Origin: Lysobacteraceae bacterium SCN 69-320
Lineage (GTDB): Bacteria > Pseudomonadota > Gammaproteobacteria > Xanthomonadales > Rhodanobacteraceae
Reading direction: 5' to 3'
Assembly (NCBI GenBank): GCA_001725155.1
Contig: MEFP01000017.1
Span: 2,338 to 66,337, forward strand
DNA: 64,000 nt
Of this stretch, positions 9,736 to 46,846 are shown in pieces (the first letter of the stretch is position 1; each line of letters opens with the position of its first letter). The notes below the pieces were generated by a model. That model searched no databases, was not told the origin of the DNA, and saw only the letters and a program-made list of their open reading frames with translations. The position numbers and the translations under genes are program-made.

Positions 9736-11058
9736 ATGCGCCTCACTGCTGCACTCGCTGCGGCCGCCTTGCTGGCGGCCGCGGCCACGCCCAGCCCGGC
9801 GGCACCGCCGGCCGACCTGTCCCTGGTCCGCGTGCCGAACGCCTCGACCACGTTCTCCACCCCGGTAGCCCTGCGCGCGCCGAACGACGGCAGCGGCCGC
9901 CTGTTCGTCGTCGAAAAGGGCGGCTCCATCAAGATCATCAAGAACGGCGCGTTGCTGGCCACGCCGTTCCTGACGCGCACGGTCACCTCCTCCAGCGAAA
10001 GCGGACTGCTCGGCCTGGCCTTCCATCCGAACTTCGGCAAGGCCGGCCTGCCGCACAACAACGAGTTCTACGTCTTCTACACGCGGCCGTCCGCCGATCC
10101 CAGGCTCGGCACGACGCCGGACCAGGTCGTCGCACGCTATACGGTGCCGTCGCTGGATTCCGACGTGGCCGATACCAACGGCACCATCGTGCTGCGTATT
10201 CCGGATCTGGCCGGCAACCACAACGGCGGCGACATCCATTTCGGCCGCGACGGCTACCTGTACATCTCCTCGGGCGACAGCGGCGACCAGAACAACCCGC
10301 ACGGCTTCGCCGAATGCCTGTGGAAGAAGCCGGCCGACAGCAACCGCAACACCTGCGGCACGAATCCCAGCGGCATCCAGTACTACCTGCTCGGCAAGAT
10401 GCTGCGCATCGACGTGGACAATCGCGGCGGCACGGTCACGGCCGACATGTGCGGCTCCAACGGCATCGCGCCGGCCGAATACTCGATTCCGGCCGGCAAC
10501 CCGCATGTGGCCACGAGCAACACCTGCGACGAGATCTGGGCGCACGGCTTCCGCAATCCCTGGCGCTTCAGCTTCGACCGTGCCGACGGCCGCATGGTGA
10601 TCGGCGACGTCGGTCAGGGCAGCTACGAGGAAATCACGGTCAACCCCGACGCCACCGGCGGTCTCGACCACGGCTGGAGCCGCTGCGAAGGCCGTCATTA
10701 CTTCACGACCTCGGGCACCGGAACGACTTGCCCGTCGGTGACCTCGACCGTCGCACCGGTGCTGGAATACAGCCATTCGGCCGGCTGCGCCGTGACCGGC
10801 GGCTACGTCTACCGCGGACCGTATGCGCCGATGCGCGGCACGTATTTCTATGCCGACTCCTGCAGCAGCGATCTGTGGTGGTCCGAATCCAGCGGCGCCA
10901 CCTGGGATTCCGGCGGCATCAACCGACTGACCGGACTGGCCACGGGCTCGGTCTACGGCTTCGGCGAGGACGTCGACGGCAACATCTACATCACGCGCTC
11001 CAACGGCCAGATCCACCGCATCATGACCGACGGCATCTTCGCCGACGGATTCCAGTAA
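9736..11058 (+). CDS. Secreted PQQ-dependent sugar dehydrogenase (GSDH/sGDH family) with C-terminal DGIFADGFQ tag
   Basis: Signal peptide; RLFVVEKGG, ESGLLGLAFHP, NHNGG.IHFG.DGYLYIS.GD, GKMLRIDVD, EIWAHGFRNPWRFSFD, DVGQ..YEE, GGYVYRG. The real start is ATG 9736, not the 1297-aa track ORF. Confidence 0.88.
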   Translation: MRLTAALAAAALLAAAATPSPAAPPADLSLVRVPNASTTFSTPVALRAPNDGSGRLFVVEKGGSIKIIKNGALLATPFLTRTVTSSSESGLLGLAFHPNFGKAGLPHNNEFYVFYTRPSADPRLGTTPDQVVARYTVPSLDSDVADTNGTIVLRIPDLAGNHNGGDIHFGRDGYLYISSGDSGDQNNPHGFAECLWKKPADSNRNTCGTNPSGIQYYLLGKMLRIDVDNRGGTVTADMCGSNGIAPAEYSIPAGNPHVATSNTCDEIWAHGFRNPWRFSFDRADGRMVIGDVGQGSYEEITVNPDATGGLDHGWSRCEGRHYFTTSGTGTTCPSVTSTVAPVLEYSHSAGCAVTGGYVYRGPYAPMRGTYFYADSCSSDLWWSESSGATWDSGGINRLTGLATGSVYGFGEDVDGNIYITRSNGQIHRIMTDGIFADGFQ

Positions 11059-11135: not shown

Positions 11136-11744
11136 TCAGCTGCCGTATTTGACCGAGCAGCCATAGGGCTGCGACACCGGCACGCTGACCGGCTTGCCGC
11201 CGGCCAGCTCGGCCAGCGCCTGCTTCACGTACTGCGTGGCCTTCGGAATGTCGGCCGTGTCGGCGCTCTGGATCGAGTCGATGCCGCCCATGTAGCGCAG
11301 CACGCCCTGGCCGTCGATGACGTACATGTGCGGTGTGGTCCGGGCGCCGTAGGCCTTGCCGACGGTGCCGTCGGGATCGAGCAGATACGCCGACTGCGCG
11401 CTGTGGTTGGTCTGCATCAGCGCGTTTGCGCCGGCGCCGTCGAGCTGGCCCTGCTTGCCGGGCGCACCGGAGTTGATCGACAGCCAGACCACGCCGGCCG
11501 CCGTGGCTTCCTTCTGCTGCGCCTGCATGTTGCCGCTGCCGTAGTGCTTCTTCACGAACGGGCATTCGGCATTGGTCCATTCGAGCACGACGGTCTTGCC
11601 CTTGAACTCCTCGAGGCTGCGCGTCTTGCCGTTGCTGTCGGCGAGGCTGAAAGCCGGCGCCGGTTGGCCGACCTCGACCTTGGCCAGTACCGGCAGGCCG
11701 GCGCAGGCCAGCGCGGCGGCGAGCATCGCGGGAATCAGTTTCAT
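11136..11744 (-). CDS. Exported thioredoxin-fold/peroxiredoxin-like redoxin (AhpC-TSA family)
   Basis: Signal peptide; GQPAPAFSL, WTNAECPFV, YGARTTPHMYVID, YMGGID, terminal YGCSVKY. Start ATG 11744 overlaps the dsbD stop. Confidence 0.85.
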   Translation of the reverse strand: MKLIPAMLAAALACAGLPVLAKVEVGQPAPAFSLADSNGKTRSLEEFKGKTVVLEWTNAECPFVKKHYGSGNMQAQQKEATAAGVVWLSINSGAPGKQGQLDGAGANALMQTNHSAQSAYLLDPDGTVGKAYGARTTPHMYVIDGQGVLRYMGGIDSIQSADTADIPKATQYVKQALAELAGGKPVSVPVSQPYGCSVKYGS

Positions 11745-13963
11745 GGTGGACTCCGGGTGACGGGTGGGGAGGAAGCGCCGGCCGCCGCGCGCGTCAGCGC
11801 CGCGTCGACCAGGCCGGGGGTGAGCAGCTGCGGCAACACCTCGGGCGTGCCGCCGCCGCGCGGATAGACCACGTAGAGCGGCACGCCGCTGCGCGCGAAT
11901 TCGGCCAGATAGCGCGTGATCGCGGCGTCCTGGCTGGTCCAGTCGCCCTTGAGGTAGTGGATGCCGCCGCCCCGCAGCCGCTCGGCGAACGCGTCGGACG
12001 ACAGCGCGACCTTTTCGTTGGCCAGGCAGCTGATGCACCAGGCCGCCGTCATGTTGACGAAGACCGGTTCGCCGTCGCGCCGCAATGCATCCAGGCGCTG
12101 CGGCGTCCAGGCCTGCCAGAGCTCGCCGGCGGCCTGCGCGTCGGCGGCGGCCGGTTTCGCGGCGAGCTGCGGCAGCACGATCAGCGGCGCCAACGCCAGC
12201 AGCAGCAGCGCCGCACCGGCGGGCCGGCGCCACGCCGCGGCGCCGGCCTGCCACTGGCCGCGGCCATGGAACAGCAGCGCGGCGATCAGCACGACCAGGC
12301 CGATCAGGACGAATGCCGTCGCATCCGCGCCGATCTGGCGCATGAGCACCCAGATCAGCCAGACCGCGGTCAGGTACAGCGGCCAGGCCATGAGCTGCTT
12401 GAACGCGTCCATCCAGGCGCCCGGCCGCGGCAGCCAGCGCGCAAGCACCGGCACGAAGCTCAGCACGACGATGGGCAAGGCCAGGCCCGCGCCGAGCGCC
12501 GCGAACACGAGCAGCGCCGCTGCGGCCGGCTGGGTCAGCGCGAAGCCGAGCGCGGTTCCCATGAACGGCGCCGAGCACGGACTGGCGACCACACAGGCCA
12601 GCAGTCCCGTGAAGAAGGCCGAGCGCGCGCCGCCGCCGTCGGTCAGCGACTGGCCGACGCCGCCGAGCCGCGCGCCGATGACGAAGGCGCCCGACAGGCT
12701 CAGTCCCATTGCGACCATCAGATAGGCGAGCACGGCGACCAGGGTCGGCGACTGCAGCTGGAAGCCCCAGCCGAGCTGGCTGCCGGCGCCGCGTAATGCG
12801 AGCAGCACCGCGGCGAGCGACAGAAAGCCCGTCACCGCGCCGGCCAGATAGGCCAAGCCTTCGCGGCGTGCCGCGGCCGGCGCATGCGCCGTCTCCGCCA
12901 ACGTCAGTGCCTTCAGCGACAGCACCGGAAACACGCAGGGCATGAGGTTCAGCACGAGGCCGCCGGCCAGGGCCAGCAGCACGGCGGCGAGCAGGCCGAC
13001 GGCGTCTTCGCCGGTCGAGGCTGGCGGTGCAGCTGCGGCACCGGCGGAGAGTGCGGTTGTGCGTGTCCCGGAATTGCCGGAACCGCTGCCCCCGTCACCC
13101 GGCTGGATGGATGTCCCCGGCGCGCCGGAAGCGCCGGGCCAGGCCACGCTCACCTGCCAGGCACGCACGTCGCCGGCCTTGCGCCGCACGAGCACGAGAT
13201 CGAACGGCGCGGTCGGCGGCGCGAAGTAATCGCTGCGCGCGGCCGTGACGCTCAGCGCGCCGTCGGCCGCGGCGATACGCACCGGTGTATTGGCGAGGAT
13301 CTGCGGCTGCACGGCGAAGGCATCGAGCGCGTCGGGTGCCGGCAGGCCGTCGCCGCGCAGGCGGATCCCGATCTGTTCGCCCGTAGCGACGACCTCGGTT
13401 GCCCACGACACGGGCTGCGGCCGCTGCGCGAGTGCGGCGTTCACGAGGACAGCCGCGGCGCTGTCGGCGGGCTCGCTGCCGGTTGCGACGACCGGCAGCT
13501 GCAGATCGAGACGCGCCTGCCCCGGAATGCACTCTTCGCGACAGACCAGCCAGTGCGCCTGCACGGTCACCGTCGCATTGCTGCCGGGTCTGGCATCGGC
13601 CGGCACATTGATCGCGACCGGCAGCAGCGCCTCGCCCGAGTAGCCGAAATTGAACAGTTCGCCGAGCTGCAGCCGCTCGGGCGCCGGCCAGGCGATGGGC
13701 CCGGCCTGCCAGCCCGGCGGCAGGGTCCATTCCAGTCGCGTGGCCAGGCCGCTGTCGCCGGCATTCGTCCAGTAGGTATGCCAATGCGTCTCGTGGTTCA
13801 GGCGCAGGCCCAGCCAGTTGTCGCGGCCGGCGACCAGCGCCTGCTTCTGTGCGACCAGTTCGACGGTCAGGTGTTCACTGCGCAGCGGCGTGGCCAGTGC
13901 CGGGCCGGCGGCCGTCGTGACGAGGCCGCAGAGGGTCAGCAGTACGCGCAGACAGGACCGCAT
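11741..13963 (-). CDS. dsbD: DsbD/ScsB-family thiol:disulfide interchange membrane protein
   Basis: N-domain VCREECIPG; TM domain LMPCVFPVL and ASPCSAPF; C-terminal thioredoxin AAWCISC. Start moved to ATG 13963. Confidence 0.85.
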   Translation of the reverse strand: MRSCLRVLLTLCGLVTTAAGPALATPLRSEHLTVELVAQKQALVAGRDNWLGLRLNHETHWHTYWTNAGDSGLATRLEWTLPPGWQAGPIAWPAPERLQLGELFNFGYSGEALLPVAINVPADARPGSNATVTVQAHWLVCREECIPGQARLDLQLPVVATGSEPADSAAAVLVNAALAQRPQPVSWATEVVATGEQIGIRLRGDGLPAPDALDAFAVQPQILANTPVRIAAADGALSVTAARSDYFAPPTAPFDLVLVRRKAGDVRAWQVSVAWPGASGAPGTSIQPGDGGSGSGNSGTRTTALSAGAAAAPPASTGEDAVGLLAAVLLALAGGLVLNLMPCVFPVLSLKALTLAETAHAPAAARREGLAYLAGAVTGFLSLAAVLLALRGAGSQLGWGFQLQSPTLVAVLAYLMVAMGLSLSGAFVIGARLGGVGQSLTDGGGARSAFFTGLLACVVASPCSAPFMGTALGFALTQPAAAALLVFAALGAGLALPIVVLSFVPVLARWLPRPGAWMDAFKQLMAWPLYLTAVWLIWVLMRQIGADATAFVLIGLVVLIAALLFHGRGQWQAGAAAWRRPAGAALLLLALAPLIVLPQLAAKPAAADAQAAGELWQAWTPQRLDALRRDGEPVFVNMTAAWCISCLANEKVALSSDAFAERLRGGGIHYLKGDWTSQDAAITRYLAEFARSGVPLYVVYPRGGGTPEVLPQLLTPGLVDAALTRAAAGASSPPVTRSPP

Positions 13964-14189
13964 GAAAACTCCGGGATGAGCGTCGCGTCCGGAACCTGTC
14001 CGGCGCACAGGGAATGGTGCGCACCTTAGCGCAGGCGTTGCCGGCGTCGGCGTATGGACTGCGCCCAGGCGACGCGTCGCCGCGCCGTGTCGTGCCGTCG
14101 CCATCGCTTCCCGGTCGGATCTGCAACATCTGACGAGCTTGTCGCGTGCGTTGCGTCCTCAGGCCTGACCAGAGCCAAGGAGGAATCGC

Positions 14190-15902
14190 ATGACCACCCT
14201 GTTGCGCGCACTGATCGCTTGCGTGGCCATCGGCCTGGCCCTGCCCGTTGCCGCCGCCGACCTGATCTTCCGCGACGGCTACGAATTTCCCGTGCGCCCG
14301 TCCAGCCGCGGCGAAGCCTCGCGCTTCCTGACCCAGGCCACATTCGGCCCGAGCGACGCCGACATCGACGCCTTGTCCGCAAGCAGCTACGCCGCCTGGA
14401 TAGCCGCACAGGTCGAGCTGCCGCCGAGCTATTTCCTGCCCTACATGCGCAGCCAGGCCGGCATCACCGATCCGCTGCAGCCGATTCCGTTCGCCGAGTT
14501 CCTGCAGGCCTGGTTCGTACGCGTGCTGTCCGCACCCGATCAGCTGCGCCAGCGCGTCGCGTTCGCGTTCAGCGAAATCCTCGTCGTGTCCGAGCGCGGC
14601 AACGGCCTGGGCAACGACGGCCTCGCGCTCGGCGCGTACTACGACATCCTGCTGCGCCATGCGCTCGGCAACTACCGCGACCTGCTCGAGGACGTGACCC
14701 TGAGCCCGGCCATGGGCCGCTATCTGAGCATGTACCGCAATCGCAAACCCGATGCGGCCAACAACATCCAGGCGGACGAGAACTACGCGCGCGAGGTCAT
14801 GCAGCTGTTCTCGATCGGCCTGGTCAAGCTCAACCGCGACGGCACGCCGGTGCTCGTGAACGGCCAGACCGTGCCGACCTACGACGGCGACGTGGTGCGC
14901 AATCTCGCGCGCGTGTTCACGGGCTGGGCCTGCCATTGCGGCGCCGGCCAGCAGTGCGTGCCCGATCCGTTCCCGGTCGAGCCGTTCACCTGCAGCACCG
15001 AGCACGAGATGGTGCCGTACGAGGCGTATCACGACCGCGACCCGAAGCGTCTGTTCGACGGCGTCGTGCTGCCGGCCGGCAGCGACGCACGGCCGGAGCT
15101 CGAACGCGCGCTCGACGCCCTGTTCCAGCATCCGAACGTCGCGCCGTTCGTCTCGCGCCAGCTGATCCAGCGACTCGTCACGAGCAACCCGTCGCCGGCT
15201 TACGTGGAGCGCGTCGCCGCGGTATTCGAGAACGACGGCCGCGGCGTACGCGGCAATCTGGCCGCGACGGTGTCGGCGATCCTGCGCGACCGCGAGGCGC
15301 GCGAGGGCCAGCGCAGTTCGATCAGCTTCGGCAAGGTGCGCGAGCCGCTGCTGCGACTGACCGCGCTGTGGCGCGCGTTCGACGTGGTCTGGGATCACGA
15401 CCCGCTGTTCCCCGACGACCGCGAGATCCACGAAAGCCACAACCAGTCGCCGCTGCTTTCGCCGTCGGTGTTCAACTTCTTCTCGCCGGGCTACAGCCCC
15501 GGCGGCGTACTGGCGGCTCCCGGGCTGGTCGCGCCGGAAATGCAGATCGTCACGGCGAACTTCGCGATACGCCTGGCCAACGACGTGTCCGGCCGCGTGT
15601 TCTGGAGCTATCGCGGCGGACCGATGGACGATCCGCAGTTCGTCGGCGTGCGCTTGGTCCAGCTCGCGCGCTGGGAGCAGTCGATACGGCCCGCGGCGGG
15701 CTCGTCCCAGGCGCCGGCCGGCGCGCTCGACCGCCTGCTCGATCGCAGTACCGAACTGCTGCTCGGCGGCCGGATCTCGCCGGCCCTGCGCAGCCGCATC
15801 CGCGCGCGCCTCGATGCCTTGCCGGCCGACGAGCCGCTGCGCCGCGTGCAGAACGCGATCTACCTGATCGCGACGTCCCCCGAATTCGCCGTGCAGCGCT
15901 AG
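14190..15902 (+). CDS. DUF1800 family protein, exported
   Basis: RFLTQATFG, DQLRQRVAFA.SEILVVS, VTLSPAMGRYL, DENYAREVMQLFSIGL, HPNVAPFVSRQLIQRLVTSNPSPAYV, GKVREP; SD aaggagg. Confidence 0.9.
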   Translation: MTTLLRALIACVAIGLALPVAAADLIFRDGYEFPVRPSSRGEASRFLTQATFGPSDADIDALSASSYAAWIAAQVELPPSYFLPYMRSQAGITDPLQPIPFAEFLQAWFVRVLSAPDQLRQRVAFAFSEILVVSERGNGLGNDGLALGAYYDILLRHALGNYRDLLEDVTLSPAMGRYLSMYRNRKPDAANNIQADENYAREVMQLFSIGLVKLNRDGTPVLVNGQTVPTYDGDVVRNLARVFTGWACHCGAGQQCVPDPFPVEPFTCSTEHEMVPYEAYHDRDPKRLFDGVVLPAGSDARPELERALDALFQHPNVAPFVSRQLIQRLVTSNPSPAYVERVAAVFENDGRGVRGNLAATVSAILRDREAREGQRSSISFGKVREPLLRLTALWRAFDVVWDHDPLFPDDREIHESHNQSPLLSPSVFNFFSPGYSPGGVLAAPGLVAPEMQIVTANFAIRLANDVSGRVFWSYRGGPMDDPQFVGVRLVQLARWEQSIRPAAGSSQAPAGALDRLLDRSTELLLGGRISPALRSRIRARLDALPADEPLRRVQNAIYLIATSPEFAVQR

Positions 15903-15912
15903 GAGCATCCCC

Positions 15913-17337
15913 ATGAGCAACGATTCCTTCGCCGCGTCGCGCCGCCGCTTCCTGCGCCGCAGCCTGGCCGCGATGGCCGGCGGCGCCGGCTTCTTCGCCG
16001 CGCCGCAAAGCCTGTCCCTGCTCAACGCGGCCTGGGCCGGCCAGGGCCAGTGCGGCGGCGACTACAAGGCGCTGGTCTGCGTGTTCCTGCTCGGCGGCAA
16101 CGACGGCCACAACCTCGTCGTGCCGCGCGGCGCGACCGAATACGCTCACTACGCCGACCGCCGCCGCGGCCTGGCCATTGCGCAGAACCAGTTGCTGCCG
16201 CTGCAGGCGCTGGACGCGCCGTTCGCGCTGGGCCTGCATCCGGCCATGCCGCAGACGGCGCAATTGTTCGAGAGTGGAAAGATGGCCATTCTCGGCAACG
16301 TCGGCGCTCTGCTCGAACCGGTCAGCAAGCAGGCCTACGACGCGCGCACGGCGCGCCTGCCGCCGCAACTGTTCTCGCACAACGACCAGCAGACCTTCTG
16401 GCAGTCGCTGCAGGTGCGTTCGGCCACCGACACGACGCCGGCCACCGGCTGGGGCGGCCGCCTGGCTGAGCTGGTCGCGGCCAGTCACAACAGCTGCGCC
16501 ACCCTGACCATGAACCTGTCGCTGGCCGGTGCGAATCCGTTCCAGGTCGGTCTGGCCGGCGAGGCGCTCAGCGTCGACACGGGCCAGATCCGCGCGATCG
16601 AAGCCGATCGCGAGCCCAGCGCGGTGGCCGAGCTCGAAGCGGTCTACGGCATCGCGCAGGACAATCTGCTCGTGGAGCAGTACCGCCGCGCCACGCGCCG
16701 CGCGATCGACGACTATGCCGTGCTGCGCACGGCGCTCGCCGGCGCGCCGAACCTCGACAGCGCGTTTCCGCCGCCGCCGGAACCCGGCGATCCGGCATCG
16801 GCACGCTTCGCGTTCGCGCTCGGCAGCCAGCTGCGCCGCGCCGCGCAGCTGATCGCCGTGCGCGCGGCACTGGGTCAGCGGCGGCAGATCTTCTTCTGCG
16901 CGCTCGGCGGCTTCGACACGCACGACGCGCAGAGCGCCGACCAGCCGCAGCTGCTGGCCGGACTGGATCAGGCCCTGGCCGCGTTCCAGCGCAGCGTGCA
17001 GGCCATGAACCTGCAGGACCAGGTCACCACCTTCACGGCCAGCGACTTCGGCCGCTCCATGACCAGCAACGGCGACGGTTCCGATCACGGCTGGGGCAAT
17101 CATCTGTTCGTGCTCGGCGGCGCGGTGAACGGCCGCCGCGTCTACGGCGCGATACCCGACATGGCCGCCGGCAGCGCGGATTTCGCCGGCGACGGCAATC
17201 TGATCCCGCGCATCGCCGTGGACCAGTACGGCGCGACCCTGGCGCGCTGGTTCGGCGTGACCGACGCGCAGGCGCTGAACACCTGCTTTCCGAATCTCGC
17301 GAATTTCGCGCAGCGCGATCTGGGTTTCCTGAGCTGA
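15913..17337 (+). CDS. DUF1501 family protein with Tat signal
   Basis: SRRRFLR; YKALVCVFL.GGNDG.N, QLFSHNDQQ, GGFDTH, ASDFGR, NGDGSDHGWG. Confidence 0.9.
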   Translation: MSNDSFAASRRRFLRRSLAAMAGGAGFFAAPQSLSLLNAAWAGQGQCGGDYKALVCVFLLGGNDGHNLVVPRGATEYAHYADRRRGLAIAQNQLLPLQALDAPFALGLHPAMPQTAQLFESGKMAILGNVGALLEPVSKQAYDARTARLPPQLFSHNDQQTFWQSLQVRSATDTTPATGWGGRLAELVAASHNSCATLTMNLSLAGANPFQVGLAGEALSVDTGQIRAIEADREPSAVAELEAVYGIAQDNLLVEQYRRATRRAIDDYAVLRTALAGAPNLDSAFPPPPEPGDPASARFAFALGSQLRRAAQLIAVRAALGQRRQIFFCALGGFDTHDAQSADQPQLLAGLDQALAAFQRSVQAMNLQDQVTTFTASDFGRSMTSNGDGSDHGWGNHLFVLGGAVNGRRVYGAIPDMAAGSADFAGDGNLIPRIAVDQYGATLARWFGVTDAQALNTCFPNLANFAQRDLGFLS

Positions 17338-45505: not shown

Positions 45506-46846
45506 ATGTCACGCACTTTCCTGCTGCCGCTCATGCTGCTGGCCGCTACAGCCAACGCCGCGACCTATCAGGTCGGACCCACGCGCACCTATGCCAGCCT
45601 GAACCAGCTGTTCGCCGCGCAGGATCTCGGCGGCGGCGATGTCGTCGAAGTCGACGGCAACGTGACCTATGCCGGCGGCGTCGTGGTGCCGTCCGGCGAC
45701 GGCGGCAGTCCCGGCAACCCGGTCGTGATCCGCGGCATCCGCGTCAACGGCCAGCGCCCGCACATCGCCGGCGGCACGAACACGGTGGAGTTCCGCCAGT
45801 CCAATTACCTCGTGTTCGAGGGCTTCGAGGTCAGCGGCGGCAGCGCGCGCTGCATCCTGCAGGGCGCCCACGAAGTGACCGTGCGCGACAGCGTGATCCA
45901 CGCCTGCCCGGCTCACGGCATCCTCAGCACCGATCAGCTGTCGGGTTCGTTCACCCTGGAATATTCCGAGATCTACGACGCCGGCGCCGGCACCTCGCAG
46001 CATCCCCTGTACATCCAGAGCGACGAGATCGCCTGGCCCGGCTCGGTGTTCCGCATGCGCTACAACTACGTGCACGACGGCACCGGCGGCAACCTGCTGA
46101 AGTGCCGCCACGAACGCGCCGAGATCCACTACAACTGGTTCCAGGGCGCGGCCTATCACGAGCTGGAACTCATAGGCCCGGACGAGAACACGCAGCAGGC
46201 CGGCTGGAGCCGCGACCTCGTGCGCGAGGACCAGGACGTCGTCGGCAACGTCATCGTGCACAGCAATCCGGCTTTCGGCGCCGTCATCCGCATCGGCGGC
46301 GACGGCACCGGCGTCAGCAAGGGCCGCGCGCGTTTCGTCAACAACACCTTCCTGCTGACCTCGGGCACGGACACGACGGTGTTCCGCATCTTCCAGGAAA
46401 TGCAGTCGGTGGAGATGCACAACAATGTCATCGACGCGACTGCCGGCGGCGTGCCGCGCATCATCCGTGCGGTCGCCGGCGAGCTGGCCTGGACCGACGG
46501 CCGCCAGATCCGCGGCAGCAACAACTGGATAGAAAGCACGGCGACGTTCGTGCCGGATGCGAGCGAGTGGAGCGCTACCCTGAGCGGCACGAATCCCGGT
46601 TTCGTCGACGCCGCCGGCTACGACCTGCGCCCGGCCGCCGCCAGCGTGCTGCGCGATGCCGGCAACGGCGCTCCGGCCGGTGCGCCGGGCTTCGGTTTCC
46701 CGACTCCGCTGTTTCCGCCGGCTGTCCAGCCGCAGCGCGCGGCGACCGCGCCCGGCGCCGCGCTCGCACGTCCCGTCGACGCCGCGATCGACATCGGTGC
46801 GTTCGAGCGCGCCGGCGATGTCATTTTCGCGAACGGGTTTCAGTGA
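45506..46846 (+). CDS. Secreted right-handed parallel beta-helix protein with choice-of-anchor-Q-like end and C-terminal DVIFANGFQ tag
   Basis: Signal peptide ANA|ATYQVGP; Asn-ladder repeats (RYNYVHDG, HYNWF, VGNVI, VNNTF, HNNVI); PGFVD...YDLRP...S.L.DAG and IDIGAFE. Start moved to ATG 45506. Confidence 0.82.
   Translation: MSRTFLLPLMLLAATANAATYQVGPTRTYASLNQLFAAQDLGGGDVVEVDGNVTYAGGVVVPSGDGGSPGNPVVIRGIRVNGQRPHIAGGTNTVEFRQSNYLVFEGFEVSGGSARCILQGAHEVTVRDSVIHACPAHGILSTDQLSGSFTLEYSEIYDAGAGTSQHPLYIQSDEIAWPGSVFRMRYNYVHDGTGGNLLKCRHERAEIHYNWFQGAAYHELELIGPDENTQQAGWSRDLVREDQDVVGNVIVHSNPAFGAVIRIGGDGTGVSKGRARFVNNTFLLTSGTDTTVFRIFQEMQSVEMHNNVIDATAGGVPRIIRAVAGELAWTDGRQIRGSNNWIESTATFVPDASEWSATLSGTNPGFVDAAGYDLRPAAASVLRDAGNGAPAGAPGFGFPTPLFPPAVQPQRAATAPGAALARPVDAAIDIGAFERAGDVIFANGFQ

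Follow-up and report, generated by a model that had tools for sequence, protein, structure and literature searches.

Can a short peptide that marks the C-terminus of many exported proteins be used equally well at the start of a chain? About 76 otherwise unrelated exported proteins of Lysobacteraceae bacterium SCN 69-320, a Tahibacter, end in such a tag, and an earlier note on the window (the whole 64,000-nucleotide stretch that was analysed, contig MEFP01000017.1, positions 2,338 to 66,337) pointed out what appeared to be the same tag at the mature N-terminus of a DUF1800 protein. The note inferred that the tag works at either end of a chain, that this argues against a transpeptidase-cleaved C-terminal signal and for a free-terminus docking peptide, and that this copy is therefore a key discriminator of mechanism. 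Here we address whether the N-terminal copy is genuine, whether it is part of the DUF1800 fold, and what its distribution across related genomes indicates about how it is read.

Results

The N-terminal copy of the tag

The open reading frame at 14190..15902 (+) encodes a protein of 570 residues that starts MTTLLRALIACVAIGLALPVAAADLIFRDGYEFPVRPSSRGEASRFLTQATFG, and is predicted to be processed as MTTLLRALIACVAIGLALPVAAA|DLIFRDGYEFPVRPSSRGEASRFLTQATFG. The features of the locus, together with two C-terminal tags of the same window used for comparison, are as follows.

14177..14183 (+): Shine-Dalgarno sequence AAGGAGG, 6 nt before the ATG, which supports the start codon and hence the position of the tag.
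14190..14258 (+): Sec-type signal peptide, residues 1-23 (MTTLLRALIACVAIGLALPVAAA), with predicted cleavage after AAA.
14259..14285 (+): N-terminal copy of the tag, DLIFRDGYE, residues 24-32.
14286..14321 (+): Pro-rich linker FPVRPSSRGEAS, residues 33-44, between the tag and the DUF1800 core.
14322..15902 (+): DUF1800 core (PF08811) to the stop codon, with a fixed C-terminus (...SPEFAVQR-stop) that leaves no room for a C-terminal appendage.
15913..17337 (+): partner gene encoding a DUF1501 protein (PF07394) with a twin-arginine-type leader (SRRRFLRR) and no tag at either end (best tag score -0.1).
11029..11055 (+): C-terminal tag DGIFADGFQ-stop of a 1401-aa ORF.
46817..46843 (+): C-terminal tag DVIFANGFQ-stop of a 575-aa ORF.

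The observation made in the earlier note is confirmed, with the small correction that the signal-peptidase site reads PVAAA|D and not PVAAA|A. This site was judged by the -3/-1 rule only, and signal-peptide calls throughout are heuristic; however, orthologues have equivalent leaders, and the tag starts 0-4 aa after the nearest AxA-type site in 62 of 64 tagged homologues. The closest relatives of the protein are from Tahibacter caeni (90% identity) and T. harae (80%).

In order to see whether the segment matches the C-terminal tags better than chance allows, we first scanned the whole 5.7-Mb genome in six frames, which found about 60 ORFs ending in D-x-[IL]-F-x-[NDS]-G-F-[EQD], 0-6 residues before the stop. 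A 9-column matrix was then built from 56 of these C-terminal tags only, so that the DUF1800 copy was excluded from it. The segment scores 23.1 bits, inside the range of the seed tags, which corresponds to an exact P of 1.0e-8 per position and an E of 0.018 over the 1.76 million residues of likely coding ORFs, and no reversed-sequence decoy reaches 16 bits against 85 real hits. Chance is thus excluded. The earlier note had stated in advance that an N-terminal frequency no higher than chance would count against it; we found 2 N-terminal copies at 18 bits or more where about 0.03 were expected. A repeat at the level of DNA was also considered and rejected, as the variable positions differ in amino acid and the conserved positions use synonymous codons in other genomes.

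With a threshold of 14 bits in the last 22 residues there are 76 C-tagged ORFs in this genome, of which 62 have a signal-peptide-like start, compared to 29% genome-wide. Their domains are typical of exoproteins: endonuclease I, M12B, M14 and S8 peptidases, BNR/sortilin, PKD, Calx-beta and beta-helix. These tags end 0-13 aa before the stop and are followed by no hydrophobic stretch. A search of the 60-aa termini against NCBIfam gave no hit at E up to 1, apart from a sub-threshold choice_anch_Q hit (NF041518, 15.6 against 25 bits) upstream of one tag. Full-text literature searches for the motif letters, for DUF1800/DUF1501 and for C-terminal sorting signals in Xanthomonadales found nothing on this tag.

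The segment is not part of the DUF1800 fold

The other refuting condition named by the earlier note was that the segment might be a universal structural part of DUF1800, and this is not the case. The protein matches the DUF1800 profile above the gathering score (284.8 bits, E 1.7e-84), but the match covers residues 45-567 and so leaves the segment outside the family core. In an AlphaFold2 model built from 111 homologues (mean pLDDT 92.7), residues 21-30 form the lowest-confidence block (56) and do not pack on the core. A search with this model found no match in the PDB (best E 0.96), which leaves the host protein without an assigned function.

All of the top 53 full-length homologues, down to about 55% identity (Tahibacter, Dokdonella, Rhodanobacteraceae, Chiayiivirga), have a signal peptide followed by the motif, some with perfect consensus such as DTIFANGFE and DVIFRNGFE at 30 bits. 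Most of the more distant homologues (about 50% identity or less) instead have a lipoprotein lipobox and a Gly/Ser/Pro linker in the same slot, and the rest form a second tagged clade of the DHVFDSGFD type. The window protein itself reads LPVAAA|D, with no Cys, and so does not fit the lipobox pattern [LVI][ASTVI][GAS]C. A tree of 111 homologues built on the core columns alone shows two tagged clades, one of them nested among lipobox clades, and at least two tag/lipobox changes are needed to explain it.

Distribution of the tag

A degenerate DNA pattern for the motif gives 40-175 sites in many genomes of the order, compared to 0-6 for the reversed-pattern control, whereas in 149 other gammaproteobacterial families the pattern stays at background; the tag is restricted to this order. 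We obtained the N-terminal regions of 67 DUF1800 genes, of which 59 could be scored, and added the three paralogues of this genome. In tag-rich genomes 35 of 49 score 8 bits or more (chance about 0.002 per protein), and the remaining fourteen carry visibly related degenerate forms (for example DHVFDATFS and GPMFHDGME) that may no longer be read. In tag-poor genomes 0 of 13 reach 8 bits, and these have a lipobox (VVACGGGGG, LAACGGGSG) or a plain linker instead; they include a genome of the same family (G070) with three DUF1800 genes. The difference is significant by Fisher's test (P 2.4e-6), although neither this nor the other associations reported here are corrected for shared ancestry.

Other N-terminal and internal copies

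All three type I DUF1800 paralogues of this genome carry the motif, as DLIFRDGYE, DAIWRHGFE and RTFFKSGFE. An esterase or PHB-depolymerase-like family of ~310 aa, restricted to this order, has a signal peptide, then ATTVRLPxWVCxxP, then D-A-I-F-x-x-G-F-E in about 110 of 120 homologues, and there the tag starts 4-5 residues after a conserved Cys, about 10-15 residues into the mature chain. Both families have fixed C-termini: 104 of 120 DUF1800 homologues end exactly 4 residues after SPE[FY], and 115 of 120 esterases end 6 residues after the last Cys. We infer that this is why the tag went to the other end in these families. About ten internal copies of 18 bits or more also exist in the genome, for which we have no explanation.

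One tag per DUF1800/DUF1501 pair

A Pfam scan of the C-tagged proteins turned up a DUF1501 that ends in DRIFANGFQ-stop (31.9 bits) and sits next to a fourth, divergent DUF1800 (PF08811, E 1e-99) with a Tat-like leader and no tag. The genome therefore has four DUF1800/DUF1501 pairs and exactly one tag in each, three on the DUF1800 N-terminus and one on the DUF1501 C-terminus. Of the 120 nearest homologues of that DUF1501, 119 end in the tag, and in an AlphaFold2 model the tag is again the least confident end (pLDDT 61, then 40). As for the twin-arginine signal (S/T-R-R-x-F-L-K plus a hydrophobic region), the SRRRFLRR leader of the window's DUF1501 scores 16.3 bits on TIGR01409 (TAT_signal_seq), just under the 16.7 cut-off, and the type II DUF1501 homologues read (D/N)RRDFLK, which does not settle the assignment either way.

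We then examined 40 whole pairs from other genomes, and in none of them is the tag on both partners. In type I pairs from tag-rich genomes (16 of 16) the tag or a degenerate form is on DUF1800 and nothing is on DUF1501, while in type II pairs from tag-rich genomes with the usual Gly form (14 of 14) nothing is on DUF1800 and the tag is on DUF1501. In a tag-less genome (G053) neither partner is tagged. In one genus (g16; 5 of 5) the orthologous type II pair has the tag near the N-terminus of a signal-less DUF1800, and its DUF1501 stops right before the place where the other lineages add linker plus tag. The g16 case is an evolutionary swap of both position and carrier.

These pairs also bear on the idea that the N-terminal motif is an intrinsic element of this DUF1800 lineage, for example a contact tail for DUF1501, which resembles the C-terminal tags only by chance or convergence. 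The motif is inherited vertically within two DUF1800 clades, and one motif per pair could also describe a tail that binds the partner subunit. However, the score of 23-30 bits comes from a matrix built from unrelated proteins, an unrelated esterase family carries the motif near its N-terminus, the motif is missing from DUF1800 in tag-poor genomes, the modelled segment has low confidence and does not pack onto the core, and the N-terminal copy follows the genus-wide change described below. We consider this explanation largely refuted and very unlikely.

Co-variation of N- and C-terminal copies

The g16 N-terminal copies read D[RP]IF[SN][DS]RFE (for example DRIFSDRFE), with Arg where the tag otherwise has its near-invariant Gly. 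Running the DNA pattern again with Arg or Ser codons at that position gave 24-110 F-x-D-R-F-E sites in the nine g16 genomes compared to 1-10 in the six other genomes searched in the same way, and 18 of 20 sampled sites lie 0-13 residues before a stop codon. Order-wide, only g16 is rich in the Arg (CGN) form, while some families have a minor Ser form. A whole genus thus re-coded its tag and the N-terminal copy followed, which is the strongest evidence that N- and C-terminal copies are read by the same co-evolving partner. A second test of co-variation could not be made with the esterase family, as it is absent from family f7 of our genome set.

Candidate readers

We asked which machinery tracks the tag. 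The Xps-type type II secretion system was rejected as a partner, as its marker T2SSM_b is in 119 of 121 genomes regardless of tags. DUF1800/DUF1501 was likewise rejected as the reader, since one genome (G087) has 41 sites and no DUF1800, whereas G070 has three DUF1800 genes and G053 a DUF1800-II/DUF1501 pair without tags. G087 and G070 belong to the same genus. A second, Gsp-type type II secretion system, which lies at G000 C5:7.8-13.8 kb and C3:159-172 kb (genome and contig handles of our set), does track the tag: T2SSL (PF05134) is in 72 of 75 tag-rich and 17 of 46 tag-poor genomes, or in 81 of 84 compared to 8 of 37 once g16 is counted as tag-rich. The system is near-necessary but not sufficient, being present without tags in 8 genomes and absent from 3 tag-rich ones, and since type II substrates have no sequence criterion and are defined by dependence on the system, the co-occurrence leaves the tagged proteins neither assigned to it nor excluded from it. 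Its GspC has a C-terminal PDZ domain, a plausible peptide reader. A comparison of this domain between 9 Arg-type and 16 Gly-type genomes showed no charge-compensating substitution, the only differences being a g16-specific C-terminal tail and one Pro-to-Val column, and so speaks neither clearly for nor against GspC.

Discussion

Our data indicate that DLIFRDGYE is a genuine N-terminal copy of a short address label with the consensus D-x-[IL]-F-x-[ND]-G-F-[EQD]. In the explanation that we favor, with moderate confidence, the label is a flexible linear peptide rather than part of any fold, and it acts after transport across the inner membrane, because it sits on Sec cargo (this DUF1800), on Tat cargo (a DUF1501 paralogue) and on a signal-less DUF1800 that presumably rides out with its Tat partner. 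One label would serve a whole complex and could be placed on whichever chain end is free, and a single shared reader would recognize it and co-evolve with it, which explains why one genus changed Gly to Arg in all its copies at once, the N-terminal one included. In DUF1800 the label occupies the slot that relatives in other bacteria fill with a lipobox, so it probably decides where in the envelope the DUF1800/DUF1501 complex ends up. We regard the steps up to this point as established by comparison, and think it highly likely that this is the same tag, functional, position-tolerant and read by one co-evolving reader, although no experiment exists and function, reader and destination are in that sense all inferred. 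What we infer beyond the comparisons is that reading is non-covalent, probably by beta-strand addition, and, more tentatively, that the most likely reader belongs to the Gsp-type system, which would hand tagged cargo across the outer membrane or keep it at the cell surface.

The interpretation offered by the earlier note is partly supported. The N-terminal segment is the same tag as the C-terminal ones and evidently works from either end, as indicated by the one-tag-per-pair rule, the swap between orthologous pairs and the Gly-to-Arg co-variation, and this argues against a sortase- or exosortase-type cleaved C-terminal signal. A strictly free terminus, however, is not required, given the position of the tag in the esterase family, the 0-13 residues that trail C-terminal tags and the internal copies. 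A position-tolerant linear label in a flexible segment, with a strong preference for chain ends, fits better. The finding does serve as a discriminator of mechanism, as the note proposed, for what is apparently an undescribed addressing system of Xanthomonadales.

There are two further potential roles for the tag: first, it could be a non-covalent surface or outer-membrane retention anchor, a docking peptide for an envelope receptor or for lipopolysaccharide that is independent of the type II secretion system and that replaces, in DUF1800, the lipid anchor of lipoprotein homologues; and second, it could be a recognition site for a processing, modification or quality-control enzyme that acts on the peptide itself, such as a protease, a glycosyl- or acyl-transferase, or covalent attachment to the cell wall. 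The alternation of lipobox and tag in the same slot of DUF1800 suits the anchor, as does one tag per complex, and the choice_anch_Q hit was only weak. No receptor has been identified, though, many cargo types such as nucleases and peptidases are classic freely secreted enzymes, and this reading does not exclude passage through the type II system; we consider it doubtful. The nearly invariant [ND]-G-F-[EQD] core and co-evolution with a single reader fit an enzyme as well as a receptor, and ends of chains are typical substrates of such enzymes. Against this, the tag lacks the transmembrane helix and basic tail of known transpeptidase signals, it works at either end and inside a loop, and no conserved neighboring enzyme gene was seen, although neighborhoods were not searched systematically. 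We consider an enzyme recognition site unlikely.

Short sorting signals are the handles by which exported proteins are placed in or outside the bacterial envelope, and every known bacterial one is tied to a single chain end and to a membrane-embedded processing step. The present label is carried by 40-175 sites per genome across much of an order, yet no database or paper searched here describes it. The N-terminal copies narrow the possible mechanisms, as they argue against C-terminal transpeptidation and indicate that the label acts after both Sec and Tat export, that one label addresses a whole complex and, with the Arg lineage, that a single co-evolving reader exists. The label could also yield a small portable tag for directing proteins out of the periplasm. 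A more far-reaching reading, which we hold to be unlikely, is that Xanthomonadales possess an undescribed protein-addressing system with four unusual properties: its signal is a 9-residue peptide that works from either chain end, one copy per oligomeric cargo suffices, it serves Sec, Tat and hitch-hiking cargo alike, and its specificity has been re-coded (Gly to Arg) in one genus together with all of that genus's cargo. If the reader is part of the Gsp-type system, this would be the first linear, transplantable secretion signal for a type II system, and the question of how type II secretion recognizes its substrates, open for decades, would become testable.

Comparison with known systems

The tag shares with the tripartite C-terminal sorting signals read by dedicated enzymes (LPXTG/sortase, PEP-CTERM/exosortase, GlyGly-CTERM/rhombosortase, MYXO-CTERM/myxosortase; PMC3237569, PMC11980579) a short signature found on dozens of unrelated exported proteins per genome, which is lineage-restricted, many-to-one with a presumed reader and swappable between protein families. 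It differs in that no hydrophobic helix and no basic cluster follow it and in that it also occurs at N-termini and in loops, which argues against cleavage and transfer at a membrane-embedded C-terminal anchor; genes for exosortase, rhombosortase or myxosortase were not searched for. The T9SS C-terminal domain (TIGR04183 / PF18962) is a folded domain of about 70-100 aa, whereas the tag is 9 aa, and neither NCBIfam nor Pfam reported such a domain on the tagged proteins scanned.

The lipoprotein lipobox (Lgt/LspA/Lnt pathway) occupies the same slot in DUF1800 homologues, directly after the signal peptide and before a flexible linker, and likewise decides envelope location. The tag, however, has no Cys, is not part of the signal peptide and is mostly C-terminal in other proteins.

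Peptide ligands bound by beta-strand addition, such as the PDZ-domain ligands of GspC, DegS or Tsp and the TonB box of TonB-dependent receptors, are also short extended peptides in a flexible segment that are read non-covalently, and the TonB box is an N-terminal example. Classic PDZ ligands need the free carboxylate of the last residue, whereas here the tails vary, with no binding shown so far, and N-terminal and near-terminal copies exist, so that the tag is not a canonical PDZ ligand.

Finally, the peroxisomal targeting signals PTS1 (C-terminal) and PTS2 (N-terminal nonapeptide), with piggy-back import of complexes, are short labels at either end of cargo in which one labelled subunit carries an unlabelled partner. 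That system is eukaryotic and unrelated, and PTS1 and PTS2 are different sequences with different receptors, whereas here one sequence serves both ends.

Using the Arg form of the tag, [ILM]-F-x-D-R-F-E near the stop, we found that a whole genus (g16 of family f7; genomes G006, G038, G047, G056, G065, G082, G090, G098 and G106, with sites L142-L161 as examples) uses this form, with 24-110 sites per genome compared to 1-10 in the six other genomes covered by the same search. This amounts to a lineage-wide re-coding of a sorting signal. The type II DUF1800 of this genus, examined at loci L117-L121 (from G056, G082, G006, G047 and G090), has no signal peptide at all and begins M-x8-25-DRIFSDRFE, while its DUF1501 neighbour has a twin-arginine leader, suggesting that the DUF1800 is exported as a Tat hitch-hiker. 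Furthermore, the GspC of the Arg-type genus (L175-L184) ends in an extra tail of 8-11 residues, for example IMGSLQSR, after its PDZ domain, and this tail is absent from all 16 Gly-type GspC sequences. A change at the same tag position is also seen in the order sample in families f4 and f9 (e.g. genomes G026, G003, G105 and G113), which beside their Gly tags hold 20-50 sites of a Ser form, F-x-[ND]-S-F-E, written with AGY codons.

In the genome that contains the window (G000), copies of the tag also occur away from the C-terminus. A ~310-aa esterase/PHB-depolymerase-like family that is confined to this order, represented by L069 at contig C30:446318-447346 and by its homologues P0121-P0240, carries the tag 4-5 residues behind a conserved Cys near the N-terminus and ends in a conserved xLCPNAVTP tail with a second Cys. 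A 626-aa protein with no Pfam domain (L068, contig C23:6245-8122) has a weak N-terminal copy right after its signal peptide (SRAQTPGDRIFHSGVEP, 14.8 bits). About ten internal copies of the tag score 18 bits or more, among them those of L072 and L077 (S8 subtilases), L073 (DUF11/fn3) and L074-L076, L078 (DUF6689). Some of these lie 145-207 aa before the stop and one lies inside a peptidase S8 region, and they could be either fusion relics or working internal sites.

Two species of one genus (g6, in the same family as the window's genome) differ in everything relevant to the tag. Genome G087 has 41 tag sites and the Gsp-type T2SSL, whereas genome G070 has 3 sites, which is background, no T2SSL and three untagged DUF1800 genes, making the two an ideal pair for whole-proteome subtraction.

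Elsewhere in the genome of the window, at contig C5:39-1910, five head-to-tail ORF-like units of 124 codons, with a period of 375 nt, are nearly identical (LAxTPTVHGLALAVFVNVSC...) and are probably the wrong frame or strand of a highly repetitive gene. Within the window itself, the divergent upstream neighbour at 11741-14104 on the minus strand encodes a 787-aa membrane protein. Although this protein was not run against any library, it has a central Cys-containing transmembrane block (NLMPCVFPVLSLK) and a C-terminal thioredoxin-like CxxC (WCISC), and by eye it is DsbD-like.
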